From assembly GCA_030390025.1 (NCBI GenBank), contig JASTWF010000033.1, positions 1,986,001 to 2,050,000 of the forward strand: DNA of 64,000 bases, given 5' to 3'. Made by a program: the position numbers and the translations under genes. This DNA is from Squalus acanthias. Lineage: Eukaryota. This document shows, one piece after another, positions 2,769 to 64,000 of the stretch (positions are counted from its first letter, which is position 1; every line of letters starts with the position of its first letter). The notes under the pieces were generated by a model that saw only the letters and a program-made list of their open reading frames with translations, did no database searches and was not told the origin of the DNA.

Positions 2769-4385
2769 AAGAAACATAGAAACATAGAAGATAGGAGCAG
2801 GAGTAGGCCATTCGGCCCCTCGAACCTGCTCCGCCATTTAATGAGATCATGGCTGATCATCCAAACTCAGTACCCTGTCCCTGCTTTCTCCCCATATCTC
2901 TGGATTCCTTTAGCCTTAAGAAATATATCTAGCTCCTTTAATATATTTAATGAATTGACTTCTAATACCTTCTGTGGTAGAGAATTCCACAGGTTCACCA
3001 GTCTCTGGAGGAAGAAATTCCTCCTCATCTCAGTCCTCATCCTCATCCCTTATCCTTAGTCTGTGACCCCTGGTTCTGGACTCCCCCACCATCGGGAACA
3101 TCCTTCCTGCATCTAGTCTGCCTAGTCCTGTTAGAATTTTATAAGTTTCAATGAGATCCCCTCTCATTCTCTAAACTCTAGCGAATATAAGCCTAATCGA
3201 CCCAATCTCACCTCATATGTCATTCCTGCCATCCCAGGTATCAGTCTTCACTACACTCTCTCCATGGCAAGAACATCCTTCCTCAGATAAGGCGACCAAA
3301 ACTGCACACAATACTCAAGGTGTGATCTCACCAAGGCCTTATACAACTGCAGCAAGACATCCTTGTTCCTGTACTCGAATCGTCTCGCTATGAAGGCCAT
3401 CATACCATTTGCCTTCTGAACCGCATGCTGCACCTGCATGCTTACCTTCAGCGACTGGTGCACAAGGACTCCCAGGTCTCGTTGCACTTCCCCTTTTCCC
3501 AATCTATTGCCGTTCAGATAATAATATGCCTTCCTGTTTTTGCCACTGAAGTGGATAACCTCGCAATTATTCACATTATACTGCATTTGCCATGCATCGG
3601 CCCAATCACCCAACCAGTCCAAATCATACTGGAGTTTCTCTGCATCCTTCTCACAGCACACACACCCTCCCAGCTTTATGTCATCTACCAACGTGGAGAT
3701 ATTGCAGCCAGTTACCTCGTCCAGATCATTTATATATATTGTGAATAGCTGGGTTCCTAGCATCGATCCCTGCGGTACCCCACTAGTCACTGCCTGCCAC
3801 TCGGAAAAAGACCCGTTTATTCCAACTCTTTGCTTCCTGCCTGGCAACCAGTTTTCTATCCAAGGCAGTACCTTACCCCCAGTCCCATGTGCTTTAAATT
3901 TGCTTGCTAATCTCTTATGCCAGACCTTATCGAAAGCCTTCTGAAAGTCAAAATACACCACATCCACTGGTTCTCCCTTATCTATTCCACCAGTTACATC
4001 CTCAAAAAATTCCAGTAGATTAGTCAAGCATGATTTACCTTTTGTAAATCCATGTTGAATTTGTCCGATCCTGTCACTGTTTTCCAAGTGCTCTGCTATT
4101 ACATCTTTTATAATGGACTCTAGCATTTTTCCCACTACCGATGTCAGAATTACAGGTCTATGATTCCCCGTTTTCTCTCGACCACCTTTTTTAAATAGTG
4201 GGGTTACATTAGCAACCCTCCAATCCATGGGAACTGTTCCAGAGTCGATAGAATTTTGGAAGATGACCAGCAATGCATCTACTATTTCTTGGGCCACTTC
4301 CTCACATGCCCTCGGATGTAGATTATCAGGCCCTGGGGATTTATCGGCCTTCAAGCCCATCAATTTCCCTAACACCGTTTCCCTA
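2769..4385 (-). mobile_element. CR1 LINE 3' portion (RT domain plus agaaacat tail), cut off at the ERV-A LTR
   Basis: ORF 3251-4375 [32 protein letters not shown]. The tail (agaaacat)n is at 2769-2790. The sequence stops abruptly at the LTR end (4386). Confidence 0.93.
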
Positions 4386-5417
4386 TGTAAGTGTTTTTTG
4401 ATCCTAGCACAATTGCTAGATGGACGGTTCGAATCGCCCCCGCCTTACGATAGTTCTATATCCGGGAATTATTATTTAGAGTGTAAATGAAATAAGTCAC
4501 GGACAGGAATGCTCAGTGAAAAATCAAACTTATATTTATTTGGTCTAACATACACTGGCTAAAACGTGCACTACTAAACGAAATCACTGTCTCTGTGCAG
4601 AATAAAATCCAGGTTACAAACAATATACATACAGTACAAAACTGAGGACTATGACAAGCAGCAATTCCCTTGTTGCTACGGTGGACTCTAATTCCACCCC
4701 TAACAACGAATTACTCAGTCGCATAAGCCCCTTTGCCTGGCTGAACCAAACAAAGCTCCCACCCCGGAATAGCCCAAAAGCTTCACGTCTGAGAAACTCT
4801 GAGCCCTCTGGTTACCGGCTTGGGACACTCGAGACCATGCTTACCCCCACACACAGTCCGTCTCGATCGCTCCGCTTAGCTGCTTCTTCCTCTGGTACTT
4901 ATTGTTAGGTCGATCTTGTTGGGGCGAGAGCGAGACAGAGAGAGAGAGAGATGGTGGGAAAGGATCTATCTTTATTGGAGTCTTGCTACCCCTATCTTTC
5001 CCGCCAATCTTTAAAATCCTTTTGTTTCTAAGCACTCCAGTGCTTAATCAGTAATGGGACATCATCAGACCCATGTGTACTCCGTGTTTGTACTAATGGC
5101 CCTAAGTCTGAGACACAATTCGGTCTTTGTGTTGGGAAAAATTGGCTCCTCTCCGGCTGGCTAGGCCAGTGGGTTCATTGTTCTGCTTAATTTCTGAGAT
5201 GGAGGTGAGAAGTGCTTTTGCATATTCTGGATGACTGACAGTTCTTTCGTCACAGCCAACTGCCATGCATTCTCTGGAGTTTTAACAAACCACTTTTTCA
5301 CATATTTACACAGGTTGATCCCATCACAGGGAAAATATCCTCAGAAAAATCCCATAATATCCACAAAATATTCTCGATTGAGTCCATTCTTCAAACAGAT
5401 ACTTTGCGATCTCTTCA
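4386..5417 (-). repeat. ERV-A 3' LTR (TG...CA, 1032 bp)
   Basis: Minus strand begins TGAAGAGATCG at 5417 and ends ..CACTTACA at 4386. Homologous to 15637-16667 (about 10 differences in a 130-bp stretch I compared near the left end). Confidence 0.93.
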
Positions 5418-5428
5418 GTCCCCCGTTT
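5418..5428 (-). promoter_or_regulatory. Polypurine tract of ERV-A (AAACGGGGGAC abutting the 3' LTR TG)
   Basis: Purine-rich run on the minus strand directly before the 3' LTR. It is absent next to the 5' LTR. Confidence 0.75.
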
Positions 5429-5694
5429 GATGCTTGTCTTTCCACAAAGCATCACTTGGTGAGAGAGCAAATCCAAAGTCTCCCACAAGTGAAGCTATTT
5501 CCCTGATTTTACATTTTAACCCCTGAACTGCACCCCTTACTGCGTGTCATAGTTCCTTTCTACCGAGTCAAAACATCAGCGAAACGGCTTCAGAACACAT
5601 TCAAACGGCTGGGTTCCAATTCCCACCGACAAACTTCAATTCAAAATACAGAAAATTAATAAGATCCACAGGACGTTAACAAAAGGTCACCGCG

Positions 5695-7009
5695 CACATC
5701 ACACAGTACAGCATTGACAGGTGGTAACACATTACAAAAATACAACAGCGCACATCACAAAGTACAGCATTGACAGGTGGTAACACATTACAAAAATACA
5801 ACAGCGCACATCACACAGTACAGCATTGACAGGTGGTAACACATTACAAAAATACAACAGCACACATCACACAGTACAGCATTGACAGGTGGTAACACAT
5901 TACAAAAATACAACCGCGCACATCACACAGTACAGCACTGACAGGTTGTAACACATTACAAAAATACAACCGTGCACATCACACAGTACAGCATTGACAG
6001 GTGGTAACACGTTACAAAAATACAACCACGCACATCACACAGTACAGCATTGACAGGTGGTAACACATTACAAAAATACAACAGCAGACATCACACAGTA
6101 CAGCATTGACAGGTGGTAACACATTACAAAAATACAACAGCGCACGTCGCACAATACAGCATTGACAGATGGTAACACATTACAAAAATACAACTGCACA
6201 CATCACACAGTACAGCATTGACAGGTGGTAACACATTACAAAAATACAACAGCCAACATCACACAGTACAGCATTGACAGGTGGTAACACATTACAAAAA
6301 TACAACAGCGTACATCACACAGTACATGATGTGGAGATGCCGGCGTTGGACTGGGGTGGACAAAAATGAGAAGTCGCACAACACCAGGTTATAGTCCAAC
6401 AGATTTATTTAATTTTACAAGCTTTCGGAGCTGTTCGCTCCTTCCTCAGGTAGAGTAGCAGTAGAGTAGCGATATCGGGTTCATGTCACGATACAGAACG
6501 TGAATTGACATCATGGCCGGTCTTTCCAGGTGTTTTTTTTTAAAAAAGACTAACACAAGAACCAACACAAATTGACAGGATATGCAGCCAGCAGGTGTTT
6601 TGACACGTTGGACCCCCTGGGACACATCTCATTGTCTTGGCTGTGCTCTTAGTGTGTCTTTGATGTAGGGAAAGATTTGAATAGATTTTTTCTGTGTTTA
6701 TATTGTGAATTCTGGGAGATTCTCTCACTGCTACTCTACCTGAGGAAGGAGCGAACAGCTCCGAAAGCTTGTAAAATTCAATAAATCTGTTGGACTATAA
6801 CCTGGTGTTGTGCGACTTCTCATTTTTATCACACAGTACAGCATTGACAGGTGGTAACACATTACAATAATGCAACAGCGCACATCGCACAGTACAGCAT
6901 TGACAGGTGGTAACACATTACAATAATGCAACAGCGCACATCGCACAGTACAGCATTGACAGGTGGTAACACATTACAAAAATGCAACATCCCACATCAC
7001 ACAGTACAG
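5695..7009. repeat. 56-bp tandem repeat in the ERV-A 3' UTR (~11 + ~3 copies, split by an insertion)
   Basis: Unit cacatcacacagtacagcattgacaggtggtaacacattacaaaaatacaacagcg. Period 56 (5695 to 5751). Confidence 0.95.
6327..6827. mobile_element. 501-bp non-autonomous Penelope-like insertion with 100-bp inverted repeats containing minimal hammerhead-ribozyme cores
   Basis: Inverted arms 6362-6461 and 6728-6827 (1 mismatch). Each has CTGAGGA-A-GGAGC-gaaca-GCTCC-GAAA-GCTTG. A 13-bp duplication atcacacagtaca flanks it (6314-6326 and 6828-6840). Confidence 0.7.
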
Positions 7010-7120
7010 AGTGTAAAACTATAACCAGAATACAATACACTTGCTTACAGAACCTTGGTACATTACAAGTTTTTGCAGGGAGAAACCATCATCAACATAA
7101 ATCAATGACACCTTTCCGGA

Positions 7121-8394
7121 TCAATCTAACACCCCTTGCCACCGCGCTCGGAGCATCTGGCTCCATCGCCTGCAGCTGGTGTACAACAAGTAGCTTACAA
7201 TCAACAATTGTATGATAACTAATGCATGGGAACAGATGCGGATCCAGGGAGGAATCTCGATACTCAGACCGATGTCCCACCATGGTGGCGAGACAATCCC
7301 CTTGATCTCCTCACCCACTTCTACTGTCTTTTGCTCCAAAGTGTAAAAATATTTCTGGGAGAGTTCAACGGTCTTTATTAACTCAGTGAGATGTTCTGGC
7401 AGAAAAGGAATCGTTCCAGGTCCCTATTCTCTGCCTCCCGGATCCCACACTGTCCACAACATTCAGATTATAAAGCTGTTCTTTCTCTACATTTCCATAG
7501 TCCAGTTCATAAAATATCCTGAAACATCGCTTTTAACAGAGCTTCATAAAGCTTCTCCGTCTTCCTTGGACACCACACAGGACTTCAGTCAGGTTCAGGG
7601 TCACGGATGCCACGGCGTAGAGCACGTTCTGAAACAACACTTTGTCAGTCGGGATTAACACCAACCCATTCCCTGGACCCCTGGTGGTGGTGGGACACCC
7701 ATCTACAGCCGACTGTACCGTCGGGGCTCTGGGCGGGGGCTTCCTGGTGTATGAGATGAGCTCTGTGGCGTTGATGGTATTCGGGGGTTTTGGGATCACA
7801 CAGGAGTCCACACTCCGATCCCAACCGATCCCACCCCCGGTGTCCTGCTAAATGCCATCGACACACCCGCTGGGCAGATCTTTTCCGACCCCCACATACA
7901 CACATAAAGCGCTTCCTCGGATTCCCACCACTTTTCCCAACACACATTCACTCCTCCCTGAGAACCCGTGATCGTCCGGTACGTGTCATTACTTAGTCTT
8001 TCCCAGTCAGCTGTCTGGTCCCCTGTATCCACGCTCAGTTTCCTGAGCCACCACCACCTTCCCAGTGGAATGTGCCCCTACAGCTAAGGCACACCCATTT
8101 ACCCTCTGTTACCCTAACCCGGGAGGTAGTAACCCCTATTCTCCGGCATGGGATGGATGCTTCACCATGGATGAACTTGTCATGGCTGGAATACCGGGTG
8201 GAATTCGACCCCAGCCATCCAGGCCATCTTCCCTCGTGGAGATAGACGCTCGCCCCATCCTTTGAGCCACCTCCAGTGGTCACGGTCGGTCCGTCTCCGC
8301 CGGTGCAGCCGAAGATAACCGATTCCTCGGTGTCGCCCCTGTGACTCGCGCTGGCTTCAATCCTGACGCTCAGGACTACCATGGCTGACTTCAT
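7121..8394 (-). pseudogene. env: ERV-A env (signal peptide, Ig-like domain, Pro/Thr-rich linker, degenerate furin site, large internal deletion, TM anchor), frameshifted
   Basis: ATG at 8394 (MKSAMVVLSV..) follows a splice acceptor ttttcag at 8413. VRVTEGKWVCLSC..W..EEALYVC; GLVLIPTDKVLFQNV; GRQRIGTWND; TM WIRICSHALVIIQLLIVSYLLY. Collinear with the ERV-B env. Confidence 0.85.
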
Positions 8395-8619
8395 CTTGTT
8401 CTTAGGCGTTCCCTGAAAAGACACAGAATGCAACGTTGTCCTTGGGTGATGCCTCACCTTTCCAGACGCAGCTACACACGATTACATTTGGTATCCACAA
8501 CATACATGTAAATCCAAACTATACAGACAAGCTAAGGCAACAGACAGGAGAGAAAGAGGTTATGTACAGCGCCACCCGTCTCCGGGTGGCCACACTAGGT
8601 CTACTCGACCCTGGGCCTC

Positions 8620-9936
8620 TTACGACTCCGGCTTCCTTCGTTCAACGGTGTGTAAGGAGACGTCCACGGCACCCTCGGCACTCCTGGCACTCCTCTTCAC
8701 TCCTGCCCCCACAGGCGGCACGACCGGTCCCTCTGTGGGCTCCTCACAGTCCCAGATTATGGGCTGGAGACCCACACCTGTAGCGCAGCACACCACTCCC
8801 TGCTGTTTCCTCCTCTTATCAGCTCTTTCCCCAGGGTTGAAAAGCTTGCACTGATTGATATGGAACCACTTAGTGCGTCGAGGCATTTTAATCGCATATA
8901 CCATCGGACTTGCAATATCCACGATACTGTACTGTCCCATGTATAGCGGTTCAAAAGTCCCTACCCTGGAGAAGTTTCTAACCATTACTTGATCTCCGAC
9001 CTTCCACTCGTGGTGCCTCTGAGGCTCAAGCAATAAGCGATTTCTACGATGTTGCTTCCCCATGTTACTGGCAGCCTGCCAATGGACCTGTCTGAGATGC
9101 TCAAACAAATTCTTAACAAACCTGTCCCGGTTCATCTCTCTCAACTGACTTTCCGTGAGAACCGGTGCCAGTACATGGCTGGGCGTTCTCATGACCCTGC
9201 CAGTCACGAGCTCATGCGGGGAATGCCCTGTGCTTCTAGACGGGCTGGCTCGGACCCCCATCAGAACTAACGGCAAGACCTCTGCCCATTTTCTAGGCGA
9301 GTCTCCTGTCTCCCACCATAACCTTTCCTTGATGGTCCTATTCATCCGCTCCACAATCCCCGATGACTGCGGGTTGTGTGCGACGTGCCATTTACCCTCT
9401 ACACCAGTCTGCACCTGACATCTTCAGAGTCGCCTGCATGGCTGCCCCTGTGAAGTGACTCCCCTGATCGGACTCCACATACCGTGTCAGCCCCCTCCTC
9501 GAGAACACTTCTCTCACTAGAATCTTTGCGGTCCACAAAGCTGTGGCTGTTCGGCATGGGAAGGCTTCTACCCATTTAGTGAACACATCCACCAGGAGCA
9601 GGCAGTACTTGTAACCCCTCTGTCTGGTGGGCAGCGGTCCGAAATAATCGACCTGTATGGACTGCCATGGTCCCTCCACTCTCCTAGTGTGTCCCATGGA
9701 TACCTTCCTTTTTTGGGGGTCAAGGTTGTTTGCAGCACACACCAAGCAATCCGCGCAGAAGTCGCGGACGTCCTCCCTCAGTTGCAGCCACCACCTGCCT
9801 GTTCCACCCGTTCCCAGAAGGTCTCCGGCCCGGGCTGCCCCGCTCCTGGACCCTCGTGGGCCAAATGAAGGAATTCTCTCCGGTGCTGCTGCGGAACTGC
9901 CCACTGTTCCCCTCTGAAAACCATCCCTTCCTTTAG
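8620..9936 (-). pseudogene. pol: ERV-A integrase (zinc-binding CxxC, DDE core, GPY/F-like C-terminus), frameshifted
   Basis: WW..DFCADCLVC; WQSIQVDYFGPLP; VESDQGSHF; NPQSSGIVERMNRTIKE; EPLYMGQYSIV. Confidence 0.95.
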
Positions 9937-11351
9937 AGTCATAGAGTTATACAGCACAGAAAGAGGCCCTTCGGCCCATCGTGTCCGCGCCGGCCATCAA
10001 GCCCTGTCTATTCTAATCCCATTTTACAGCACTTGGTCCGTAGCCTTGTATGCTATGGCGTTTCAAGTGCTCATCTAAATGCTTCTTTAATGTTGTGAAG
10101 GTTCCTGCCTGTACCCCCCTTTCAGGCAGTGAGTTCCAGATTCCAGCCACCCTCTGGGTGAAAAAGTTTATCCTCAAAGCCCCTCTAAACCTCCTGCCCC
10201 TTCCCTTGAAACTATGCCCCCTGGTTATTGACCCCTCTACTAAGGGAAAACGTTCCTTTCTATCTACCCTATCTATGCCCCTCATAATTGTGTACACCTC
10301 AATCAGGTCCCCGCTCAGCCTTCTCTGCTCTAATGAAAACAACCCCAGCCTGTCCAGTCTCTCTTCATAGCTGAAGTGCTCCAGCCCAGGTAACATTCTG
10401 GTGAATCTCCTCTGCAGCCTCTCCAATGAACTCACATCCTTCCTATAGTGTGGCGACCAGAACTGCACACAGTATTCCAGCTGTGGCCTAACTACCGTTT
10501 TGTACAGCTCCATCATAACCTCCCTGCTCTTATATTCTATGCCTCGGCTAATGAAGGCAAGTTTCCCATATGCCTTTTTAACCACCTTATCATCCTGTCC
10601 TGCTGCCTTCCGGGATCTATGTGCATGCTCACCAAGGTACCTCTGATCCTCTGTCCTTCCTCGGGTCCTACCATTCATTGTGTATTCCCTTGCCTTGTTA
10701 GTCTTCCCAAAATGCATCACCTCACACTTTTCAGGGTTAAATTCCATTTGCCACTGTTCTGCTCATCTAACAAACCCCTCTATATCGTCCTGTAGCCGGA
10801 GGCTTCCGTCCTCACTATTTACCATCCCACCAATTTTCGTGTCATCTGCAAACTTACTGATCATACCTCCTACATTCATATCTAAATCATTAATGTACAC
10901 TACAAACAGCAAAGGAACCAGCATTGGACACAGGCTTCCAGTCACAAAAACAACCTTCGAACATCACCCTGTGCCTCCTGCCACTAAGCCAATTTTGGAT
11001 CAAAGGTGCCAAGTTGCACTGGATCCCATGGGCTTTTACCTTCTTGACCAGTCTCCCATGCGGGACTTTGTCAAAAGCCTTACTGAAGTCCATGTAGACT
11101 ACATCAACTGCACTACCCTCATCCATACACCTAGTCACCCCCTCTAAAAATTCAATCAAATTGGTCAGACATGATCTCCCCCTGACAAAGCCATGATGAT
11201 TATCCTTGATTAATCCTTGACTCTCCAAGTGGAGACTATTTCTGTCCCTCAGAATTTTTTCCAATAATTTCCCTACCACTGATGTTATGCTCACTGGCCT
11301 GTAAGTCCCTGGTTTATCCCTACTACCCTTCTTGAATAATGGTACTACGTA
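9937..11351 (-). mobile_element. 5'-truncated CR1 inserted into ERV-A pol between RNase H and integrase, 5-bp TSD
   Basis: RT/C-terminal CR1 ORFs at 10013-11294. TTTAG is duplicated at 9932-9936 and 11352-11356. Removing the insert restores pol (..AGISLKEGMVFRG..). Confidence 0.92.
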
Positions 11352-13905
11352 TTTAGCGAGATACCTGCCACTCCGTATGGACGCTCTACCTTATCTCCCT
11401 TAGCCAGCGTCTCCAGAACAGACTTTAGGACGGGATCCCGTGCCTGGACAATCTTTAGGTCCGGGGCCAATGCTACCCCTGCACTCCCTTAGGCCCCACC
11501 TCTGTCTCTAATCGCTACTACCTGACTCGACCCATATGGATCCCAAAACGTGCCCGTTCGAGCACCCTCTTTGGTCATCACGTTGGCCTGCTGATTGCCC
11601 TCCGCACGGGGTTCCGCCTTTGAATGGGCCTTAACTTTGTGGATATAGAAATCCTCCTGGGTTCCTATACTTGTTATGATCTGTTGCAACAATGGCTTTG
11701 TTGCTCGGGGTTTCCCGTCTGCAGATGTGAACCCGCGACAAGACCAAATGGCTAAATATTCTGCACTCGAATTGCAAGTGAACATGCTGTCCGAGCAAAT
11801 AGTATAGGGCGTAGGGTACACTTCGGGGTGAGTAACCACATACACCACCGCCGACAGTTCAGCGTGCTGGGCGCTCATGGTGCTCAGGAGTTTAATGGCC
11901 TTGGCAATGCCTGCCTTTGGGTCAAAAATCCCGCATCCAGTGAGTCGCTCCCCTGCCACCACTGTACTGGACCCGTCTACATGGATCCCAGCCCGAAACC
12001 CTATGTCTACGTCCCATACCCCTTCAACAGAACATTTGTGGGCCACCCCTGGGTAGATCAAATTTGCGGGGAGCTTAGGCTCACAGAGGCCTTTCACACT
12101 CAAATTCGTCTGAGAGAGCAATAAAGTCCAGCGAGCAATGCGTGCACTGCTCACCGTGACGTCCTTTATCCTCCCTTCCAGAAGCATCTGAGTGGGCGTA
12201 TGATGGGTTACGAGAGTTAACGGGGACGCCCCCGTGAAGATTTGTGATCTCCTCACTGCCCAATGTGTGGCAAGCAGGTGCCTCTCACAATTGGAGTACC
12301 CCCTCTCTACATCTGTGAGGATTCTTGATGAGTATACCACAGGCCTCAGCTTGCCATGCCACTCCTGGAGCAGCACTGTGCTGAAACTGTCCCCGGTGGC
12401 AGCTACCTCCAAAATGAACTCCTTTCCCCCATCAATCGCTCCTAAAGCTGGTGCGGAATGCAGATCTCTCTACAGACGACTAAAAGCTGCCATGCAGTCC
12501 TTATCCCACTCCCTTGTGAAGGAGCCGGAGTAGAGGAGCTGCCGTAGCGGCATAGTACTCTATGAAATCCCTGCAATGCCCTGTGAGTCCCAGGAAGGAT
12601 CTTACCTCCGTAACCGTGGTCAGGGCAGGTAGCTCCTGTACCGCCTTCCTTTTCGCCTCATCGATGGCCCTCTCCCCAGCACGTATGGTCAGCCTGAGGA
12701 ATTTTACGTCCTGCTGGCCGATCTGTGCTTTCTTGGGATTAACCTTGAACCCAGCTTCTTTTAACAGACTCAGCAGCTCAGCCAGCAGGGGGCCATGCTC
12801 CTCCCCCTCGTTCGAGAACAAAAGCAGGTCGTCCACGTACTGTACAAGCTGCTGCGGTCTGCTGAACCCTTTTAAACAGTTGGCCATATATTGGTGGAAA
12901 ATCGAAGGACTGTTATGAAACCCTTGGGGGAGGCAGGTCCATGTGTACTGCTGACCCTTGAAAGTGAATGCGAATTTATACTGGTCCTCCCTTTTGAGAG
13001 GGATAGACCAGAATCTGTTCGAAATGTTCAGCACCGTGAATGTTTTTGCGGATGCCGGGATACTCCCGATCAGGTCGGCTGCGGCTGCGATGGTGGGGAC
13101 ACAGGCTGGGGTGTTCTTTAAGAACCCGATAGTCCACAGTGGCTCTCCACGAATTGTCCAGTTTCCTAACCGGCCAAATCGGAGAGTTCACATGGGTCGC
13201 TATGGGTCTCAACACACCCTGCTCAACCAGTGATCCCAATGCCATCTCTAAATCCGCCTCTGCCTCTCTGGGGAAGTTGTACTGTTTCTGTGGTCGGGCC
13301 ATGGGGTCTCCTTCTACTCTGACCTCCACCCCTATTACCCTCCCACAGTCGTGCTTGTGTGTAGCGAATGCCGTGAGGTTGGCTCGCACATCCGCTCTGT
13401 ACTCCGCCGGGGTAGAAGTGACCAAAGGTTCAAGGTCATAACTACCCTTGGGCTTCACCGTACACACGGTTCCCTTGCCTTGCTTCCCTAGTATAACTAC
13501 CACCTCCTTCTCCTTTCCCATGCACACTGCGCCCCAAAGACAGTGATTCCGGAAATCCACCAATATCTTGTGGGCCAGTATCAAGTCTGCCCCCAAAATG
13601 CCTATTCCCTCCCGCTCCCACCGCATCAGCACACATTTCCACTCCATACAGAGTGTACCCAGATCGATGGCTAGCGGGATGGAGAAAGGCCCAGCCTGTT
13701 CGTTCCCGGTGAACCCTACTAAGTTATATGGGACCCCACTCGACAGAGGTGCTGTAGTTGGGTTATCCGCATAGACAATGGTGCTTGAAGCTCCAGTGTC
13801 CAGCAGATAGGTCCCTTGCACCTTCTCCACCCCCAGCTTCACGCACGGTCTCTTCCAAGCATCATAACTTAGTGGGCACAGGTAAACGGGCTGAGAAGCC
13901 CCTAG
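11352..13905 (-). pseudogene. pol: ERV-A pol: aspartic protease, RT, degenerate RNase H (tether) and a second catalytic-type RNase H, frameshifted
   Basis: YLLDTGASSTIV; NSPIWPVRK..WRATVDYR; LPQGFHNSP..QYVDDLLLF; tether LEVAAT..RPVVYSSR..ERHLLA..THHTP; RH IHVDGSS..SAQHAEL..CSDS..KVKAH..GNQQAN. Confidence 0.95.
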
Positions 13906-13908
13906 TCA
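13902..13908 (-). promoter_or_regulatory. Putative gag-pol stop-codon readthrough signal UGA-CUAG
   Basis: Minus strand ..GAC CCA TGA CTA GGG GCT.. The gag stop is followed in the same frame by 21 sense codons leading into the protease ORF (13842). Confidence 0.75.
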
Positions 13909-15587
13909 TGGGTCGGGATTGTTCGGGGTGGATGGGAGTTCGCTGCCCACTGCTGCATCCACCCTACCCTGCCCTACCGGAAAGACTGCGCGGAGAGCAG
14001 CAACTAATACCGCGAACGGATCAGTGCTGCTTCCTGCCACAGCTGCGGCTTTCTGCACTGGCGCTGGAGGATCCACTTTTCCGCTCCTTTTGTCAGAGAC
14101 TGGGCAGTCTTTCCTCCAGTGCCCTTTACTCCCGCACCCATAACAAACCTGCTTCTTCTCTGAGCTACTCCCTTCCTGGCGCCACTCTCTTCTAACGTTG
14201 CCTCCACTAGGCTTTAACTCGTGTACTCTGCCCTTTGGTTTGTCATCCTCACCCCTACCATTCTTAAAAGAGAGAGTTAACTGCCGGATCACACTCTCTT
14301 CTGTGGTCTGGGGATCCCTGGAATCGAACCACCCCTCTGCTTTGGCCTTGATCCTGGGCAGGCTGTTCGCCACCAGGGTCCTCAGCCAATGAGGCCTAGG
14401 ATCCCCCTCCAGCTGCACACGGTCGGGCACCCCCACATAGGCAATCCGGTCGACGGTCCAAAGCCTGTCCGCGAAAGCCTGCGGTGCCTCCCCAGCTGAT
14501 TGCAGTGTCCTTTCCACTCGGGAGAAGGGACTTTCATCACTGAGGCCCATAGCCTTTAGGATGTCATCCTTTATCCACTCTAACGTACCCTGCCCCCTCT
14601 TGCTACCCGCTGAGAGCGACTGGTACAACCTACTATCCAGGGAAAATAATAGTAATTTGTCTGTCTCAGCTTGGTTACAATTGTTGATCCCCCCCCACCT
14701 GCTCCACATCCGTAAAATGGAGAGATGGGTCCCCTTTGCTGGTCAGTTTGGTCAGGTTAGAGACCATTGCCCGCAGCTGGGGGGTCGTATACGGGACCAC
14801 GAAGTCACTCTGCAGTGGTCCTTGCTCTTGACCGTCTACGGGCGCACCGTATTTCTGCTGCCGGACAGGGCACATGGGTCCTGGTCCCGGCACTTCGGGC
14901 GGTGGTCGAGCGTCCTCCTCTACCTCACAGTCCTCCTTATCTCCCTCCTGCTCTTCCTCATCTACCCGGGCCATTCCCGGAGCTACAAAGCAGACCATCC
15001 CTTTGGCCTTAGATACAGCATCGGTCAAATTCCGGATCTGCTCCTGGCCAGGACCATGATTACCCGTATCAAACCCTCTAGTGCTGGGGACTCTGTATGC
15101 CACCTGAATATCCTTCAACTGCTCTCCCAGCACCTTTACCTCACTCGACAAGCGAGCGTTCTCCTCCCTAACCACCCTCTCGTTCCCCTTTGCCTCAGTT
15201 ACCTGGCATCGCAGGAACTCCTTATGGTTACGGAAGGTTTCCTCCAGGCTTATTCTTCTCTGCTTCTCATCCCTTACCTCCGTGCATAACCAGCTCCCTA
15301 CTACAGCCCTTGCGTCTGTCTGTGCCATTGGACTCCCTGAGCTCTGCCTCTAACGTAGCAACCTGCTTATCTAGCAGTTCGACTTGTCTTTGTAGACAGA
15401 TGAGCCATATCGCCTTTTCAATGCTGCGCCTATGCTCCTTGCCCTCCGTCCATTCTGCCGCTGTGTCCACCGGACGCTCAGACTGGAACAAGCCTAGCAC
15501 CCACTTCTTAGTGACGTTAACCTTCTTAAACACATATGAAGAAATCCTTTCCTCCATTTGGGATCTTTTGCCAGAAGCACTGTCCAT
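13906..15587 (-). pseudogene. gag: ERV-A gag (N-terminal coiled coil, capsid-like region, single CCHC zinc knuckle), frameshifted
   Basis: First ATG after the PBS at 15587 (MDSASGKRSQMEE..). Heptad-rich LQRQVELLDKQVATLEAEL; QSAGEAPQAFADRL; CYGCGSKGHWRKDC. Confidence 0.9.
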
Positions 15588-15613
15588 GACTGATTTACTC
15601 TCCTTTAACCCAG

Positions 15614-15631
15614 GTCCTGCCGCGGTAGCCA
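15614..15631 (-). promoter_or_regulatory. Primer binding site complementary to tRNA-Arg(TCG)
   Basis: Minus strand TGGCTACCGCGGCAGGAC, 5 nt after the 5' LTR. The plus strand gtcctgccgcggtagcca matches the vertebrate tRNA-Arg-TCG 3' end GTCCTGCCGCGGTCG+CCA (recalled) at 17/18. Confidence 0.8.
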
Positions 15632-15636
15632 AGAGA

Positions 15637-16667
15637 TTTAAGTGGTTTTTGATCCTAGCCCAGTTGCTAGATGGACGATTCGAATCGCCCCCGCCTTACG
15701 AAAGTTCTATACCCGGGAATTATTATTCAGAGTGTAAATCAAATAAGTCATGGACAGGAATGCTTCAGCGAAAAATCAAACTTATATTTATTTGGTCTAA
15801 CATACACTGGCTAAAATGTGCACTACTAAACGAAATCACTGTCTCTGTGGAGAATAAAATCCAGGTTAAAAACAACAAACATACAGTACAAACTGGGGAC
15901 TATAAAATCCAGTATTTCCCGTGTTGCTATGGTGGACTCTAATTCCACCCCTAGCAACGAATTACCCAGTCGCATAAGGCCCTTCGCCTGTCTGAAACAA
16001 TGGAAGCCCCCACCCTCGGAATAGCCCAAAAACTTCACTTCTGAGAAAAACTCTGAGCCCTCTGGTTACCGGCTTGGGACACTCTAGACCATGCTTACCC
16101 CCACACGCAGTCCATCTCGATCGCTCCACTTAGCTGCTTCTTCCTATGGTCTTAATGTTAGATCGATCTTGGTGCAGCGAGAGCGATAGAGAGAGAGAGA
16201 ATGGTGGGAAAGTATCTATCTTTATAGGAGTCTTGCTACACCTATCTTTCCCGCCAATCTTTAAAATCCTTTTGTTTCGAAACACTCCGGTGCTGAATCA
16301 TTGATGGGTCATCCTCAAACCCATGTGTACTCCGTGATTGGAACAATGGTCCTAAGTCTGGGATATATTTCGGTCTTTCTGTTGGGCAAAACTGGCTCTT
16401 CTCCGGCTGGCTAGGCCAGTGGGTTCATTGTTCTGCTTCTCTTCTCAGATGGAGGTGAGAAGTGATTTTGAATATTCAGGATGACTGACAGTTATTGTGT
16501 CACACCCAACTGCCATGTGTTCTCTGGAGTTTTAACAAACCAGTTTTTCACATACTAAGACAGGGTGATCCCATCACAGGGAAAATACCCTCAGAAAAAT
16601 CCCATAAAGTCCACAAAATATTCTCGACTGAGTCCATTCTTCAAACAGAGACTTTGCGATCTCTTCA
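15637..16667 (-). repeat. ERV-A 5' LTR (1031 bp), TATAAA at 16221-16226 and AATAAA at 15787-15792 on minus
   Basis: Direct repeat of 4386-5417. Begins TGAAGAG; the terminal CA is mutated to AA; followed by the PBS. Confidence 0.93.
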
Positions 16668-17736
16668 GATATTATGTGAATTTGGGAGGGGCTGAGGATA
16701 TTAGGAGTGGTGGGGAGGAGCTGAGGATAATAGGTGGGGTGGGGAGGAGCTGAGGATATTAGGTGCGGTGGGGAGGAGCTGAGTATATTAGGTGGGGTGG
16801 GGAGGAGCTGAGGATATGAGGAGGTGTGGGGGAGAAGCTGAGGATATTAGGTGGGGTGGGGAGGAGCTGAGGATATTAGGTGTGGTGGGGAGGAGCTGAG
16901 GATAATAGGTGGGGTGGGGAAGAGCTGAGGATATTAGGTGGGGTGGGGAGGAGCTGAGGATATTAGGTGGGGAGGAGCTGAGAATATTAGGTGGGATGGG
17001 GAGGAGCTGAGGATATTAGGTGGGGTGGGGAGGAGCTGAGGATATTAGGTGAGGTCGGGAGGAGCTGAGGATATTAGTTGGGGTGGGGAGGAGCTGAGGA
17101 TATTAGGTGGGGTGGGGAGGAGCTGAGAATATTAGTTGGGGTGGAGAGGAGATGAGTATATTAGGTGAGGTGGTGAGGAGCTGAGGATATGAGGTGGGGT
17201 GGGGAGGAGCTGAGGATATTAGGTGTGGTGGGGAGGAGCTGAGGATATTAGGAGGGGTGAGGAGGAGCTGAGGATATTAGGTGGGGTGGGGAGTAGCTGA
17301 GGATATTAGGTGGGGTGGGGAGGAGCTGAGGATATTAGCTGGGTTGGGGAGGAGCTGAGAATATCAGGTGGGGTGGGGAGGAGCTGAGGATATTAGGTGG
17401 GGTGGGGAGGAGCTGAGGATATTAGCTGGGGTGGGGAGGAGCTGAGGATATTAGTTGGGGTGGGGTGGAGCTGAGGATATTAGTTGGGGTGGGGAGGAGC
17501 TGAGGATATTAGGTGGGGTGGGGAGGAGCTGTGGATATTGGTTGGGGTGGGGAGGAGCTGAGGATATTAGGTGGGGTGGAGAGGAGCTGAGGATATTAGG
17601 TGGGGTGGGAAGGAGCTGAGGATATTAGATGGGGTGGGGAGGTGCTAAGGATATTAGATGGGGTGTGGAGGAGCTCAGGATATTAGATGGGGTGGGGAGG
17701 AGCTGAGGATATTAGATGGGGTGTGGAGGAGCTGAG
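16668..17736. repeat. 29-bp G-rich minisatellite, block 1
   Basis: Unit gaggagctgaggatattaggtggggtggg, period 29. Confidence 0.97.
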
Positions 17737-20700
17737 TAAAATAAATAGGAAGATAGTGCAGTAGTCCCCTGGGTCCATCTCCCTCTCCGACATATTTTCC
17801 GTTTTGGATACTGATGGGGGAGATGGTTTCTCAGGGGAATGCATCAAGAGCCAAGTCAGTGGCTCTACGAGTGGCTCAGCTGCACAGGAGGGGAGGAAAA
17901 AGAGTGGGAGAGCAATAGTGATAGGGGATTCTATCGTAAGGGAAACAGATAGACGTTTCTGTGGCCGCAGACGTGACTCCAGAATGCTATGTTGCCTCCC
18001 TGGTCCCAGGGTCAAGGATGTCACTGAACGGCTGCAGGGCATTCTGAAGGGGGAGGGCGAACAGTCAGAGGTCGTGGTTCATATTGGTACCAACGACATG
18101 GGTAGAAAGAGGGATGAGGCCCTGCAGCAAGAATTTAGGGAGCTAGGGAACAGATTTAATAGCAGGACCTCAAAGTTTGTAATCTATAGATTACTCCCGG
18201 TGCCATGTGCTAGTGGGTACAGGAATAGGAGGATAGAGCAGATGAATGCGTGGCTAAAGAGTTGGTGCAGGAGGGAGGGCTTTAGTTTCCTGGATTACTG
18301 GGTCTACTTCAGGGGAAGGTGGGACCTGTACAAGTCGGACGGGTTGCACCTGAACCGGAACGGGACCAACATTCTTGCGGGGAGGTTTGCTAGTACTGTT
18401 GGGGTGCGGGGGGGGGGGCGGGGTAGGGGGGGTGGGTGTTAAACTAACTCGGCAGGGGGATGGGATGCGGAGTGGAGCTATAGTAGGGGGTGATGCACAG
18501 CCAAATATAGAGGAAAAAACAAGTCAGCCTGGAATGCAGAGCAAATATGTAACGACACAAGGGAGTATGGCAAGGCTGGATGGCATTTATTTGAACGCAA
18601 GGAGTCTTCCGAGTAAGGCAGATGAATTGAAGGTGTTGATGAACACATGGGAGTATGATATTGTTGCTATAACAGATACATGGTTGAGGGAGGGGCAGGA
18701 CTGGCAGTCAATATTCCGGGGTATAGAATCTTCAGGCGAGACAGAGGCGGGTGTAAAAGAGGAGGGGGTGTCTCAATATTAATCAAGGAGTTAATTACTG
18801 CTGTAAGGAGGGATGATATCTTAGCAGGTCCCTCTAATGAGGCCATATGGGTAGAACGTAAAAACAAAAAGGGACAAGCACATTGCTGGGAGTGTACTAT
18901 AGGGCCCCAGACAGTCAGGGGGAGATAGAGGAACAGATATGTGGGCAAATCTCAGAGAAGTGTAGAAATAATAGGCTAATAATAGTAGGGGATTTCAGCT
19001 TCCCCAATATTAACTTGCATAGTCAGAGTGTGAAAGGCTTAGAGGGTGCGGAATTCTTAAAGTGCATCCAGGAGAGCTTTTTGAGCCAGCATGTAGAAAG
19101 TCCTACAAGAGAGGCGGCGGTACTGGACCAAATTCTAGGGAATGTAGCCGGGCAAGTGGTAGAAGTGTTAGTAGGAGAGCATTTTGGTGAGAGTGACCAT
19201 AATTCGGTGAGATTTAAGGTAGTCATGGAAAAGGACAAAGATGGACCGGAAATAAATGTTCTAAATTGGGGGAAGGCCGATTTTAATATGATAAGGCAGG
19301 ATCTCGGCAAAGTTGACTGGGATCAGCTACTTGTAGGAAAATCCACATCAGAGCAGTGGGAGTCTTTCAGAAAGGAAATAGAGAGAGTACAACGCCAACA
19401 TGTTCCATAAAAGTCAAGGGTGGGACCAACAAGCCCAGGGAACCCTGGATGTCACGGGATATACGAGAATGGATTAGGAAAAAAAGGGAGGCTTTTGGCA
19501 GATACAAAGGACTGAAAATAGTGGAAGCCCTAGAGGAGTGTAGAAAGTGCAGGGGGGTGCCTAAAAAAGAAATTAGGAGAGCGAAGAGGGGGCATGAAAT
19601 AACACCAGCGGGCAAAATAAAGGAAAATCACAAGGTGTTTAATAAATATATTAAGGGCAAGAGGATAACCAGGGAAAGAGTATGGCCCAGTAGGTACCAA
19701 AGTGGCAATCTGTGTGTAGAGCCAGAAGATGTAGGTGGGGTTTTAAATGAATATTGTGAATCTGTGTTCACTATGGAGTAGGATGATGTAGGCATAGAAA
19801 TCAGAAACGGGGATTGTGATATACTTGAACAAATTAGTATTGAGAGGGAGGAGGTACTAGCGGTTTTAGCGGGCTTAAAAGTCGATAATTCCCCATTCCC
19901 AGACGAGATGTATCCCAGGCTGCTCTGTGAGGCAAGGGAGGAGATTGCAGGGGCTCTGACACAAATTTTCAGAACATCTCTGGCCACAGGGGAGGTGCCA
20001 GTGGACTGGAGAACAGCTAACGTAGTACCATTATTCAAGGAGGGTAGCAGTGATAAACCAGGGAATTATAGGCCAGTGAGCCTAACATCAGTGGTAGGGA
20101 AATTATTGGAAAAAATTATGAGGGACAGAATCAGCCTCCACTTGGAGAGGCTAGGATTAATCAAAGATAGTCAGCATGGCTTTGTCTGGGGGAGATCATG
20201 TCTGACCAATTTGATTGAATTTTTCGAGGTGGCGACTAGTTGTGTGGATGAGGGGAGTGCAGTTGATGTGATCTACATGGACTTCAGTAAGGCATTTGAC
20301 AAAGTCCCGCAAGGGAGACTGGTCAAGAAGGTAAGAGCCCACAGGATCCAGGGCAACTTGGCACATTGGATCCAAAATTGGCTGAGTGGCAGGAGGCAGA
20401 GGGTGGTGGTCGAAGGTTGTTTTTGTGACTGGAAGCCTGTGTCCAGTGGTGTACCGCAGGGATCGCTGCTGGGTACTTTACTATTTGTAGTGTGCATTAA
20501 TGATTTCGATATGAATGTAGGAGGTAGGATCAGTAAGTTCGCAGATGACACGAAAATTGGTGGGGTGGTAAATAGCGAGGAGGGAAGCCTCAGGCTACAG
20601 GACGATATAGACGGGTTGGTCAGATGGGCAGAACAGTGGCAACTGGAAATTAATCCTGAAAAGTGTGAGTTGATGCATTTTGGGAGGACGAACAAGGCAA

Positions 20701-21424
20701 GGGAATACACAATGAATGGTAGGATCAGTGGGACCTTGATGGGCATGTACATAGATCCCTGAATGCAGCAGGGCAGTTTGACAGGTGGTTAAAAAAGCAT
20801 ATGGGATAATTGCCTTCATTAGCCGAGGCAAAGAATATAAGAGCAGCGAGGTTATGATGGAGCTGTACAAAATACTAGTTAGGCCATAGCTGGAATACGG
20901 TGTGCAGTTATGGACGCCACACTATAGGAAGGATGTGATTGCATTGGAGTGGGTGCAGATGAGATTCTCCACGATGTTACCTGGGCTGCAGCGCTTCAGC
21001 TATGAAGAGAGACTGGACAGGTTGGGGTTGTTTTCTATAGAGCAGAGAAGGCTGAGGGGGGACCTGATTGAGGTGAACAAAATTATGAGGGGCATAGATA
21101 CGGTAGATAGAAACGAACATTTCCCCTTAGTAGAGGGGTCAATAACAAGGTGGCATAGATTCAAGGTAAGGGGCAGGAAGTTTAGAGGGGATTTGAAGAA
21201 AAATTTTACACCCAGAGGGTGGTTGAAATCTGGAACTCACTGCCTGAAAGGGTGGTAGAGGCAGGAACCCTCACAACATTCAAGAATCATTTAGATGAGC
21301 ACTTCAAACGCCAAAGCATACAAGGCTACGGAACAAGAGCTGGAAAATGGGATTAGGATAGACAGGGCTTGATGGCCGGCGTGGACACGACGGGCTGAAG
21401 GCCTGTTTCTGTGCTGTATACCTA
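17737..21424 (+). mobile_element. Near full-length CR1 LINE (ORF1 SGNH/GDSL esterase domain, ORF2 endonuclease plus RT), frameshifted, inserted in the minisatellite
   Basis: ORF1 AIVIGDSIVR..VVVHIGTND..DGLHLN. ORF2 YLNARSL..VAITDTWL, GDFSFP, SDHN, YMDFSKAFDKV, FADDTK. Confidence 0.95.
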
Positions 21425-60379: not shown

Positions 60380-62340
60380 TTACGCGGTACTTTCCTCGTT
60401 CACGCGCACGTAACGTTCTCTCCACTCCTCTGTGTTCTCCTGCCTCGTGAGGCGTTTGCCTCTTTTGCAGTGTACGACCAATAGGTACACTACAATCACA
60501 ACTTGACACACTACCAAAATGTGGGAGGCTATCTTTATCCATGACGGCACTTCAATATTAGTGAACAGATCACAGCACGGTGGGATTACTATGTCCAGTA
60601 TCTCTGTCCCTATCTCTACAGTCTTTTGTTCCAGGGTGTAAAAATGTTTCTGTGATACAATGACGGCTTTTAAAATCTTGGTGAGGTGTTCAGGGAGAGG
60701 GGGAATGGTGTATCCGAAATGCGCAATGAATCGCTGCAAGTCTGTGAAATTCTCTTCTACAGTGAGGTGAACAGTAGATGGTTCAGGGATTGGGACAATT
60801 CGCTGTTGTGTCACTTGAACTTCAGCCCTGGGTTTAAAACAGAAACTACTGTCACTCACCGGACTCCGGATGTGGTGTCCATGCTGGTAGTGTTGCGCTG
60901 CAGTGGTTACGCAATACGTTCCATCCCTATGTATGCCACCTGTGGGGGCACATGATCTTGTGTCATTGCTTCCATGGTGCAATTCATGGGCTTCGCGCCA
61001 GCCGTTCTGAACCCGCATTGTGGTGTTAAAAAGGCATTCAAGTGCTGGGGACACAGGATGATGTGTGCTCCCCGGCCACGACAACCCGAAAGGTCGGTAC
61101 CTGTCATCGTTTGCTCCCAGCGGATTACGTAAGGTGGGACCGCTGCGTAGCGAATGTGGGCTCCCCCCTGAATGCCACCAATGTTCTCCACCCGATACAC
61201 CGGGGCGGGCTTTGCTGTGTCGCCCAACACCGGCATCCGTACTACTATCCCCATGATAGTATGATTTGACTGTCCGCAGTACACGGGGACTGGGTATGCC
61301 TCTGAGGCTAGCCTGAGCTGGCACGGGCTTAATGCGTTCTGAAAAGGAGTGGAGCGCCTGCAGGTGTTTGTTACTTATCCAGGACGGGACCAAACCTTGT
61401 TTTAAATCCTCCAAATTACTGTGGCCCTCGCCCAGTAACCACACCCCGTATAGTACGCACACCTCGTTCTGCGCAGCTTGATCGGATGCATTCCGATCTT
61501 CCCTGATCAGGGCATTTAACGTTCTCGCATGCTTCTCCAGCTCTGCTATAATCTCTTTTATGTGTAGTGTCATGGCCTGGTCCTCATGTAACTCAGACCC
61601 TACTACCTTGTTCTCGTTTGTGAGGATGCTTTTTAACTGTGTTTTTAAACCGTTGATCTGGGTCTGCAGCTCCACATTGTCTAGAGCGTTGACCACAGAT
61701 GTTCCCGTATTAAAAGGAGTGAACACATCGTTCACAACATCCCTGCTTTGTCTCCCCACCTGACCCAAAACTTCGTGTGGTGTGGTGTTAGGAAAAATAT
61801 GGATATACCCTTGGGGCAAACGTACTTCGATCCCCACATACAAACATATATTCCCTCATCCGGTTCCCACCATTTGTCCCAACAGACTTTCAATTGTCCG
61901 TTAGTCCCTGTAATTGTCCGATGGGTATTGTTACCCAATCGCTCCCACTCGACCGAGGAATTTCTCATAGCCTTGCTTAACTTCCGTAACCACCACCATC
62001 GGCTCAATGGGACCTTCCCATTGCTCGTCAAACAAATCCTTTTGCCGACGGTAACACTGATTCTGGGTGCAATGATCCTCACCCTGGGACACAGTAAATA
62101 AGTCTCTTTGTAGGCAAATCCGGATGCGCTGGAGTATTCCGTCGAATTCGTTCCCAGCCATCCCGGCCACCTTCCCTTGTGGAAATAAGTGGCGGTTTCC
62201 TCAGCCTTTCGCTCCCCGGTCCCATCCATCGTGATGGGGCCCGTGTCCCCGGAGCAACCGAACACAACGACATCCTTGGTGAGGCCCCGATAGGCCAATC
62301 CATATCCGATCGTTGCGAGCACTATCAGAATCCTTTCCAT
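60380..62340 (-). pseudogene. env: ERV-B env (signal peptide, Ig-like domain, RQSR furin site, fusion peptide/HR1, Cys-rich core, HR2, TM), frameshifted
   Basis: MERILIVLATIGYGLA after a splice acceptor (tctgatcacag, 62353); RISVTVGKRICL..WWW..DEGIYVC; RQSR|DVVNDVFTPFNTGTSVVNALD; LQTQINGLKTQLKSIL; TM IASHILVVCQVVIVVYLLVV. Confidence 0.88.
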
Positions 62341-62892
62341 CTTTCCTGGTTCCTGTGATCAGATAAAATGATGTAGCCAGCCTCCCAAGAGTCTCTGGCT
62401 TTTGTGAAGCGTGAGCGGGTCCCTTGACCTCGTCTCACGTACAAAGACACGTATGCTGGATAGACCTTAACTATTCCTATCACTAACTCCCATCATTTTA
62501 CCATTTACTTTTAAAATTAAACTACAATCTTACCAAACTTAAAACATTATAAACTTAAACTTATCCTAAACGTAACTGTACAGCGCCGCCCGTTCCCAGG
62601 GCGGCCTACCTAAATTCTGTGAAGGCTGCCACGAGCTTTTCCCAGTGGCGGGGGGGCACTGACCCCTTCCATTGATCTGCCGCAGCCTGTCGTCACTGCG
62701 CTGGGACTGGGATCTCCCTGGAGTGCCTTGAACTTACGCCTGGGGGTGTACGAGGGATTTGACCACAACTTCCTGGGCTGGGGTGTCCGACTCGACCTAC
62801 GGAGGGCTACCTTGGGCAAGATTCCCAGGACCGACGGACCGGGAACCGAGACTTCCACCGTCACGGCCTGTGGTCCCACCACAGCCGCCGGC

Positions 62893-63530
62893 TCTGTCTC
62901 CCCTGGCCCCGCCCCCTGGGCTCGGGACCTGCAGTTTCTGACTCCACCCTACTTGTCTCTCCAGTATGTTGAACTCCACTCACAGTCCCTGTCTCCCCTG
63001 GCCCCGCCCCCTGGGCTCCGCCCCCCTGGCCCCGCCCCCCTGGCCCCGCCCCCTGGGCTCGGGAGCTGCAGTTTCTGACTCCACCCTACTTGTCTGTCCA
63101 GTATGTGGATCTCCACTCACAATCCCTATCTCCCCTGGCCCCGCCCCCCTGGCCCCGCCCCCTGGCCCCGCCCCCTGGGCTCGGGACCTGCAGTTTCTGA
63201 CTCCACCCTACTTGTCTCTCCAGTATGTTGAACTCCACTCGCAGTCCCTATCTCCCCTGGCTCCGCCCCCTGGCCCCGCCCCCCTGGGCTCGGGAGCTGC
63301 GGTTTCTGACTCCACCCTACTTGTCTCTCCAGTATGTGTAACTCCACTCACAATCCCTGTCTCCCCTGGCCCCGCCCCCTGGCTCCGCCCCCCCTGGCCC
63401 CGCCCCCTGGCCCCGCCCCCTGGCTCCGCCCCCTGGCCCCGCCCCCTGGGCTCGGGACCTGTGGTTTCCGACTCCACCCTACTTGTCTCTCCAGTATGTT
63501 GAACTCCACTCACAGTCCCTATCTCCCCTG
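62893..63530. repeat. Compound tandem repeat in the ERV-B integrase tail (~5 units, each with variable GGGGCGGGGC subrepeats)
   Basis: Core gggctcgggacctgcagtttctgactccaccctacttgtctctccagtatgttgaactccactcacagtccct repeated, separated by 1-5 tggccccgccccc units. Confidence 0.92.
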
Positions 63531-64000
63531 AGCTTGGGTCGAGGGCGGAACCTCCGTCCTCTGTCCCCACCACCTCTCCGACCGGGTCACTACCTTGGTC
63601 GAGCTCTCCGAGCTCTTCCTCATCTGAATCCCAACACCAAGAAAAGATCCTACACTTTTCCAGAATGTCCTCTCCCCTCAAGCAGGCTGCTTTACCGGCC
63701 TGTGTGCCCTGCGGTTCTACCTGGGGCTGAGAGTCCCCACTCGCAGGTTTGGCCCCTGTGATTGGCCCCTGTGCACCCGGCTTGTACAGCTTGCACTGGT
63801 TAATGTGGAACCATTTCGTGCGCCGGGGTACCTTCACGGCATACACCATGGGACTCGCCTTATCTACAATACTGTGGGGTCCCATATACAGTGGTTCCAA
63901 ACTCCCTACTCTGGCATAGTTCCTAACCATGACCTGATCTCCGACTTCCCACTCCTGCTTCTTACGGGGTTCCAGCAACAGTCGATTGCCCTGATGCTGT
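63208..64000 (-). pseudogene. pol: ERV-B integrase C-terminus (GPY/F-like) with repetitive extension
   Basis: WEVGDQVMVRNYARVGSLEPLYMGPHSIV..KWFHINQCKLY. Confidence 0.9.

Follow-up and report, generated by a model that had tools for sequence, protein, structure and literature searches.

The locus described here raises the question of how a retrovirus obtains Pol when its gag gene ends in a stop codon that lies in frame with the protease. The window, a 64,000-nt stretch of the Squalus acanthias genome (assembly GCA_030390025.1, contig JASTWF010000033.1, positions 1,986,001 to 2,050,000), contains a 12.3-kb endogenous retrovirus (ERV), ERV-A. This minus-strand provirus lies between long terminal repeats (LTRs) at 15636-16668 and 4385-5418 and carries the gag/pro junction. 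Gag and pro share one frame, the TGA between them belongs to the family, and no AUG precedes the protease active site. The UGA is very probably a programmed readthrough site, with or without the help of RNA structure. The more specific reading, also likely, is that it is the programmed gag end of an SnRV-related lineage of cartilaginous fish, read through in a UGA-CU(A)(G) context that has no conserved adjacent structure.

The gag/pro junction

The features of the junction are as follows; the contigs and runs named in the list are described in the next section.

13906..15600, minus strand: gag, split over three frames by breaks near 15320 and 14690 (tblastn with Gag relatives P0001 and P0004)
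14101..14148, minus strand: CCHC zinc knuckle (nucleocapsid), 65 codons before the stop (PF00098, E 2.4e-5)
13906..13908, minus strand: gag stop TGA, same frame as the protease (invariant in all 4 runs at the threshold of 4% of depth)
13902..13905, minus strand: CTAG 3' context, the type II UGA-CUA motif (invariant in contigs at least 80% alike; CTG-A in one more divergent contig)
13888..13901, minus strand: 5-bp hairpin, +8 to +21, probably incidental (-6.6 kcal/mol; cannot form in the divergent X12 contig)
13792..13800, minus strand: DTG of the protease active site, codon 36 past the stop

The gag frame 14742-13906 ends in NNPDP-stop, with the TGA at 13908-13906 followed directly by CTAG. 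The same frame continues from 13905 to 12976, begins LGASQPVYLCPLSY and runs to LLDTGAS. No slippery heptamer of the form X XXY YYZ occurs in 13600-14200, that is, within 300 nt of the stop. An earlier note on this DNA had described the junction in just these terms, and the sequence reads as quoted there, on the minus strand. The earliest in-frame ATG past the stop is codon 87, beyond the DTG at codon 36. Aspartyl-protease Pfam matches after the stop are weak and sub-threshold (E 0.011 and 0.023). From base composition, the chance of CTAG after a given TGA is about 0.004, and CTAG follows 2 of the 113 TGA triplets on the minus strand of the element, the gag stop included. Since the SnRV-related group has an in-frame gag stop, this layout is the expected one.

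Readthrough at this junction, its level and its independence from structure are what we infer. On unspliced RNA most ribosomes would stop at the UGA and release Gag, and a few percent would decode it by a near-cognate tRNA and continue in frame to make Gag-Pro-Pol. The near-cognate tRNAs for UGA are those for Trp, Arg or Cys. The cue would be the weak-termination context UGA-CU(A)(G) of Beier-Grimm type II (UGA-CUA/CGG); at the shark junction UGA is followed by CUA, in frame with the downstream coding region. In mammalian cells UGA-CUA alone supports 1.5% readthrough, and four confirmed UGA-CUAG genes lack a conserved structure (PMC4132726). UGACUAG gives at least 1.3% readthrough in mammalian cells, structure being conditional for type II (PMC13517186). 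The description of UGA-CUAG as a leaky context is thus well founded, as it is a tested readthrough context in PMC4132726.

Inheritance of the stop codon

A stop at this place could also have arisen by mutation, in the window copy or in an amplified master copy, from a gag-pol frame that was originally open. In favour of this are the age and broken state of the copy (LTR distance 0.10), the heavy CpG decay and the roughly 10 lokiretrovirus consensus sequences whose annotation gives a single open gag-pol frame. We compared the junction with other copies, aligning contigs to 13780-14010 at 80% likeness or more and reporting variants at 4% of depth or more. The 497 contigs come from runs X1, X3, X8 and X12, which represent four organisms, four studies and four of the 24 listed runs, each sharing at most 0.40 of words. 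Another letter occurs at 33 positions, none of them within 13888-13913. Changes peculiar to the window copy, 4 decayed CpG sites among them, are visible at 59-100% of depth where covered; had a CGA-to-TGA change occurred in this copy, it would thus have been seen. Of 18 CpG-type positions 13 vary, and the first base of the stop, which is one of the 18, is invariant.

Nine of the 28 listed pieces bridge the stop with at least 31 letters on each side (one from X1, two from X8, six from X12, none from X3). X3 has only shorter overlaps across the stop, and X1 rests on one contig. In addition, one more divergent X12 contig has a loose end in which TGA stands in exact register, with CTG-A after it; a loose end of 8 letters in X3 reads likewise. 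Four of the five Gag relatives (40-51% identity, in two clusters) end 64-68 residues past the knuckle, close to the 65 residues of the window element and the 68 of SnRV (reference locus L001); the fifth, P0003, is cut short and ends 7 residues past the knuckle. The in-register stop of the divergent contig and the common end point of the Gag relatives and SnRV, together with the single letter found at the stop in all four runs, make a mutational origin highly improbable.

Several observations weigh against the reading of a programmed, conserved UGA-CU(A)(G) signal. One X8 contig lacks 44 nt that include the stop. Only 20 of 193 non-CpG positions vary, so that invariance at the stop is typical of neutral sites and shows inheritance, not selection. 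P0001, P0004 and the frog and coelacanth relatives are known here as proteins, not as junction DNA. In coelacanth, gene model P0088 fuses gag-like with pol sequence into a single protein, presumably a gene-model artefact. Finally, CUAG is not invariant, being CUG-A in the divergent X12 contig and CAU-G in an elephant-shark ERV.

In favour of a programmed gag end, none of the close relatives in a search of 1.84 billion proteins with the junction read as X matched both sides of it; a search for longer Gag relatives returned one Gag-only protein, which is weak evidence. A viral contig search with the junction protein gave no relatives, two metagenome contig searches gave none, and a viral contig search with the reverse transcriptase (RT) alignment gave L001 alone.

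Judged by these alignments, the TGA is best regarded as an inherited family state rather than damage. No sense codon replaces it at 4% of depth or more in any of the four runs, which agrees with the view that the stop did not arise after insertion. The conservation of TGA-CTAG across copies, proposed as a check in the earlier note, holds in part: TGA is kept in all four runs and in the divergent contig, and CTAG is kept in the close copies, whereas the divergent contig has CTG-A. Only UGA-C(U) is common to the shark copies, the divergent X12 contig and the elephant-shark element.

RNA structure downstream of the stop

The hairpin reported 4 nt past the stop is present, with a 5-bp stem formed by 13901-13897 and 13892-13888. 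It folds with a pair probability of 0.82-1.0 and carries no variants in the close copies, which favours the possibility that readthrough needs a 3' RNA structure, either this short +8 hairpin or a longer fold. Moreover, gammaretroviral, VEEV and CTFV readthrough require structures (PMC13517186). Hairpins of 5 bp are nevertheless common in gag-pol, at 3.9 per kb. Folding z-scores for the first 30-100 nt past the stop range from -0.7 to +0.4, like those of shuffled sequences, and a separate calculation gave z 0.15. For 150 and 200 nt they reach -2.1 and -2.4, which speaks for a longer fold and counts against a structure-free signal. The same test missed the known MoMLV pseudoknot used as a control (L021, z +0.4 to -0.6) and is accordingly a weak one. 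A hairpin around the protease active-site codons (13760-13805, minus strand) drives the values of about -2.1 to -2.4.

Loose ends of X1 and X3 differ in the 3' arm of the 5-bp hairpin, and the sequence of the divergent X12 contig, which keeps TGA-CT, does not allow the hairpin to form. A structure starting at +8 would sit in the mRNA channel of the ribosome. Tested readthrough stimulators begin at +12 to +16 (PMC13517186). A simple scan found 0 H-type pseudoknot candidates after the stop, and an extended stem of the alphavirus kind, spanning +11 to about +87, has a probability below 0.1 and frequent variants in its distal arm. The role in recoding that had been suggested for the hairpin thus finds no support in its position, its loss in a divergent relative with TGA-CT or its fold, which is no better than shuffles close to the stop. 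We regard the hairpin as probably incidental, and a dependence of readthrough on 3' structure as unlikely.

The combination of UGA with an adjacent hairpin also resembles selenocysteine-redefinition elements, which raises the possibility that the UGA is read as selenocysteine. No selenocysteine insertion sequence (SECIS) matches 4300-16800 at E up to 1, and the close relative SnRV has UAG at the same place; decoding as selenocysteine is extremely improbable. An Rfam search of 4300-16800 gave nothing relevant, the one match being a chance-level hit to a bacterial sRNA.

Comparison with known recoding systems

Programmed readthrough at the UGA was compared with recoding in other elements. Of 35 reference loci retrieved with an RT motif, 12 show pol in the frame of a knuckle-bearing gag, in every case with UAG-G at the junction. 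The remaining 23 records are foamy or delta-like, incomplete or shifted in frame. SnRV has the same in-frame gag/pro-pol layout, with a single stop after the knuckle and similar spacings, and differs in having UAG-GGC where the shark element has UGA-CUA-G. The type III signal of MoMLV is likewise an in-frame suppression of the gag stop. It uses UAG-G, an 8-nt purine-rich spacer and an H-type pseudoknot; the shark junction has UGA as its stop and yielded no pseudoknot candidate.

The signal had been described as unlike the textbook retroviral one. This is true with respect to the UAG-G of the 12 references and is overstated in general, as UGA junctions are known (PMC13517186, PMC8278194). SSSV (UGAAGA), ZFERV (UGACGA) and toad RMEV (UGAAGU) have UGA gag-pol junctions with presumed readthrough (PMC13517186), and XtERV-S has TGA at its gag/pro junction, readthrough again being presumed (PMC8278194). 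All four share the UGA with the shark element and belong to other lineages, and none of the three hexamers given is UGACUA. In an SnRV-like elephant-shark element, CmiERV lineage I, gag-TGA-CAT-G is in frame with the protease as read by eye from the supplement of PMC4422223. Chicken Ovex1 has an in-frame gag stop with presumed readthrough, in its case an amber codon in contrast to the UGA of the shark element (PMC2717909).

The same UGA-CUA is found outside retroviruses, with measured readthrough and structure conditional, in alphaviruses (Sindbis, chikungunya and Getah), in PSIV and in vertebrate AQP4, OPRL1, OPRK1 and MAPK10. Fission-yeast Ty3/gypsy elements Tj1, Tcry1 and Tosmo1-3 have gag-TGA-CT(A/G)-pol as here, with Candida Tca2 grouped alongside (bioRxiv 2022.12.06.519325). 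All of these are fungal LTR retrotransposons without env, of a lineage unrelated to the shark element.

The mechanism is therefore not new, in-frame gag-stop-pol layouts and UGA junctions being already known in this group and in fish and frog retroviruses. The UGA-CUAG form in a retrovirus appears to be a new variant. We found no description of UGA-CUA for any retrovirus in the open-access literature that was searched. The type II class comprises alphaviruses, coltiviruses and a triatovirus, and no retrovirus, in the available part of a 2026 review (PMC13517186). Readthrough terms are absent from the main texts, as available, of PMC7947760, PMC9040795, PMC10435555, PMC8672886 and PMC12690878, and the only match in PMC12440569 is unrelated.

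A parallel in lokiretroviruses

A similar junction occurs in lokiretroviruses. Eight junctions of 24 were read by eye from author-made consensus sequences in the supplement of PMC7947760. In seven consensus sequences gag or smc-gag is annotated as a gene of its own, and in six of these it ends in TGA with CTA directly after it; the next base is G in Ofa, Pyo and Sau and A in Bsp, Dcl and Lro. In the remaining one, Tfu, the codon at that place contains an ambiguous base, and CTA-A follows. In Cne, which has no annotated gag, a motif search gives TGA-CTA-G. Read by eye, the frame continues into the annotated pol at six of these junctions, and at that of Bsp it does not. Ten headers name a single gag-pol gene, which counts against the generality of TGA-CTA. 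In the available main text of PMC7947760 there is no mention of readthrough or stop codons. In three lokiretrovirus junctions the context is CUAGGC, as in OPRL1 and Getah virus.

Lokiretroviruses and the shark element have in common the TGA-CTA at the gag end, the dual RNase H and possibly an F-like Env, the last on weak evidence. They differ in the RT motif, which is PQGF..SP in the shark element, like SnRV, and PFG..NSP in the presumed lokiretrovirus row (by eye, row name incomplete). In the parts of PMC7947760 at hand, lokiretroviruses are not reported from cartilaginous fish. It is conceivable, though unlikely, that structure-free UGA-CU(A) readthrough is a common, perhaps ancestral, route to Pol in early-branching retroviruses of aquatic vertebrates. 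Convergence would account for the likeness more simply, as the motif is also used by alphaviruses and by fungal retrotransposons. The parallel is worth a systematic survey.

A possible splice acceptor at the junction

The main rival that dispenses with readthrough takes CTAG-G as a 3' splice acceptor. Pol would then come from a spliced RNA, as in foamy viruses, and the TGA would be a plain terminator. CTAG-G does fit YAG/G, a C-rich stretch lies upstream, and gene model P0088 joins gag-like and pol sequence. The AG is absent, however, from the divergent X12 contig, the elephant-shark ERV and three lokiretrovirus junctions, all of which keep TGA-C. Furthermore, splicing needs no shared frame, and none of the 16 foamy-like references has a knuckle-bearing gag in frame upstream of pol. 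A product starting at the acceptor would also find no ATG ahead of the protease active site. We consider this explanation very unlikely and programmed readthrough the better account of the junction.

Family placement of the provirus

The nearest RT relatives are an unnamed Pol (78% identity) and frog and coelacanth Pol (50-52%). In an RT tree of 47 rows, the window element groups with P0084, the unnamed Pol and the Pol of frog and coelacanth in one clade (95/93). Its sister is L033 (SnRV), with moderate support (87/73) and a long branch. The clade stands apart from the gamma-, epsilon-, delta-like and foamy references, in a tree without ERV-L, ERV-S or lokiretrovirus rows. Among 35 viral references, L001 is the best match to the RT (41% identity).

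L033 and L001 belong to one 10,688-nt record whose UAG-GGC junction matches that given for SnRV in PMC13517186. In L001, gag-TAG-pol is in frame, with 68 residues from knuckle to stop and 31 codons from stop to DTG, against 35 in the window element. The record is taken to be SnRV on this junction match and on its length. In tblastn against L001, Gag and Env gave no match beyond the knuckle, and no match links the element with the first 472 codons of L001 env, the transmembrane (TM) part lying outside the L001 locus. On its sequence affinities the element is classed as a defective SnRV-related ERV of cartilaginous fish. Its dual RNase H (tether plus RNase H) is common to all retroviruses and is not diagnostic. 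A first guess of lokiretrovirus identity was set aside on the RT motifs (PQGF..SP, SnRV-like) and the RT tree.

The env-like genes of ERV-A (7121-8481, minus strand) and of a second element, ERV-B (60380-62358, minus strand), match no Pfam family or PDB chain. The ERV-B env open reading frame (ORF) has ESM Atlas neighbours in Gypsy, Baculo_F and Fusion_gly clusters (0.93-0.96), with a recognition value of 1826, below the 2300 mark and hence weak. These F-type fusion neighbours correspond to gypsy, baculovirus F and paramyxovirus F, again weakly. An SnRV-related pol combined with an F-like env would, if true, be unusual.

ERV-B (63208-64000, minus strand) represents a related but distinct family, with 76% identity in the integrase end. 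Within the window it consists of the integrase end and env only, the gag-pol junction lying beyond the window. At 62600-63500 (minus strand), between its integrase and env, G+C-rich repeats extend the pol frame with glycine-rich repeats.

Layout and state of the provirus

The provirus has the gene order gag with one CCHC knuckle, protease, RT, tether, RNase H, integrase and env-like region. The features outside the junction are as follows.

15636..16668, minus strand: 5' LTR (89.9% identity to 4385-5418 over 1038 columns; Kimura two-parameter distance, K2P, 0.10)
4385..5418, minus strand: 3' LTR, pairs with the 5' LTR
15612..15631, minus strand: primer-binding-site-like stretch, immediately internal to the LTR (13 of its 20 letters agree with the best site among the first 600 nt of L001); presumably of tRNA-Arg type
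12504..13450, minus strand: reverse transcriptase, frame break near 13100 (PF00078, E 4.9e-29)
11489..12469, minus strand: tether plus RNase H, the dual RNase H (PF17917, PF00075)
10013..11390, minus strand: CR1-type long interspersed nuclear element (LINE) fragment, inserted between RNase H and integrase (ORF translations; about 90% inverted match to the LINE at 20020-21207)
8620..9946, minus strand: integrase, in two frames (PF00665, PF17921)
7121..8481, minus strand: env-like region, in pieces, no Pfam family (47-58% identity to the ERV-B env region)

This copy is defective: gag and pol have frame breaks, a LINE interrupts pol, and an intact Gag-Pol is impossible today. The LTR distance of 0.10 corresponds to tens to more than 200 million years, according to the shark substitution rate chosen, which is uncertain (2.2e-10 is assumed in PMC4422223). 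A target-site duplication is not evident at the provirus ends.

Several repeats lie in and around the provirus. A 29-nt tandem array at 16670-17760 directly abuts the 5' LTR, and a LINE abuts the 3' LTR. Between env and the 3' LTR lies a 56-nt tandem array (5561-7100), interrupted at about 6330-6830 by an element with its own direct repeat. An 83-nt tandem array runs from 22313 onward in 138 copies, mostly 96-99% identical. A neighbouring LINE protein gave 75 hits; of those with names, rays, a sawfish and a bamboo shark come closest (62-67% identity), ahead of birds, turtles and coelacanth (41-53%), which points to a cartilaginous fish as the probable host. One of the hits, P0143, a CR1-type LINE protein 58% identical to that of the window, is labelled bacterial on a 1.6-kb contig and is probably contamination.

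Implications

Programmed readthrough at the shark junction would extend the type II UGA-CUA class to a retrovirus, in which a leaky stop of the host type, without an RNA fold, would set the Gag to Gag-Pol ratio. If the unlikely wider proposal were true, the shark SnRV-related lineage and the lokiretroviruses, the sister group of all other retroviruses, would share UGA-CU(A) readthrough. The gammaretroviral UAG-pseudoknot and -1 frameshifting would then be later replacements. The lokiretrovirus motif would make the mode of Pol expression in the earliest retroviruses testable, by placing junction types on the RT tree.

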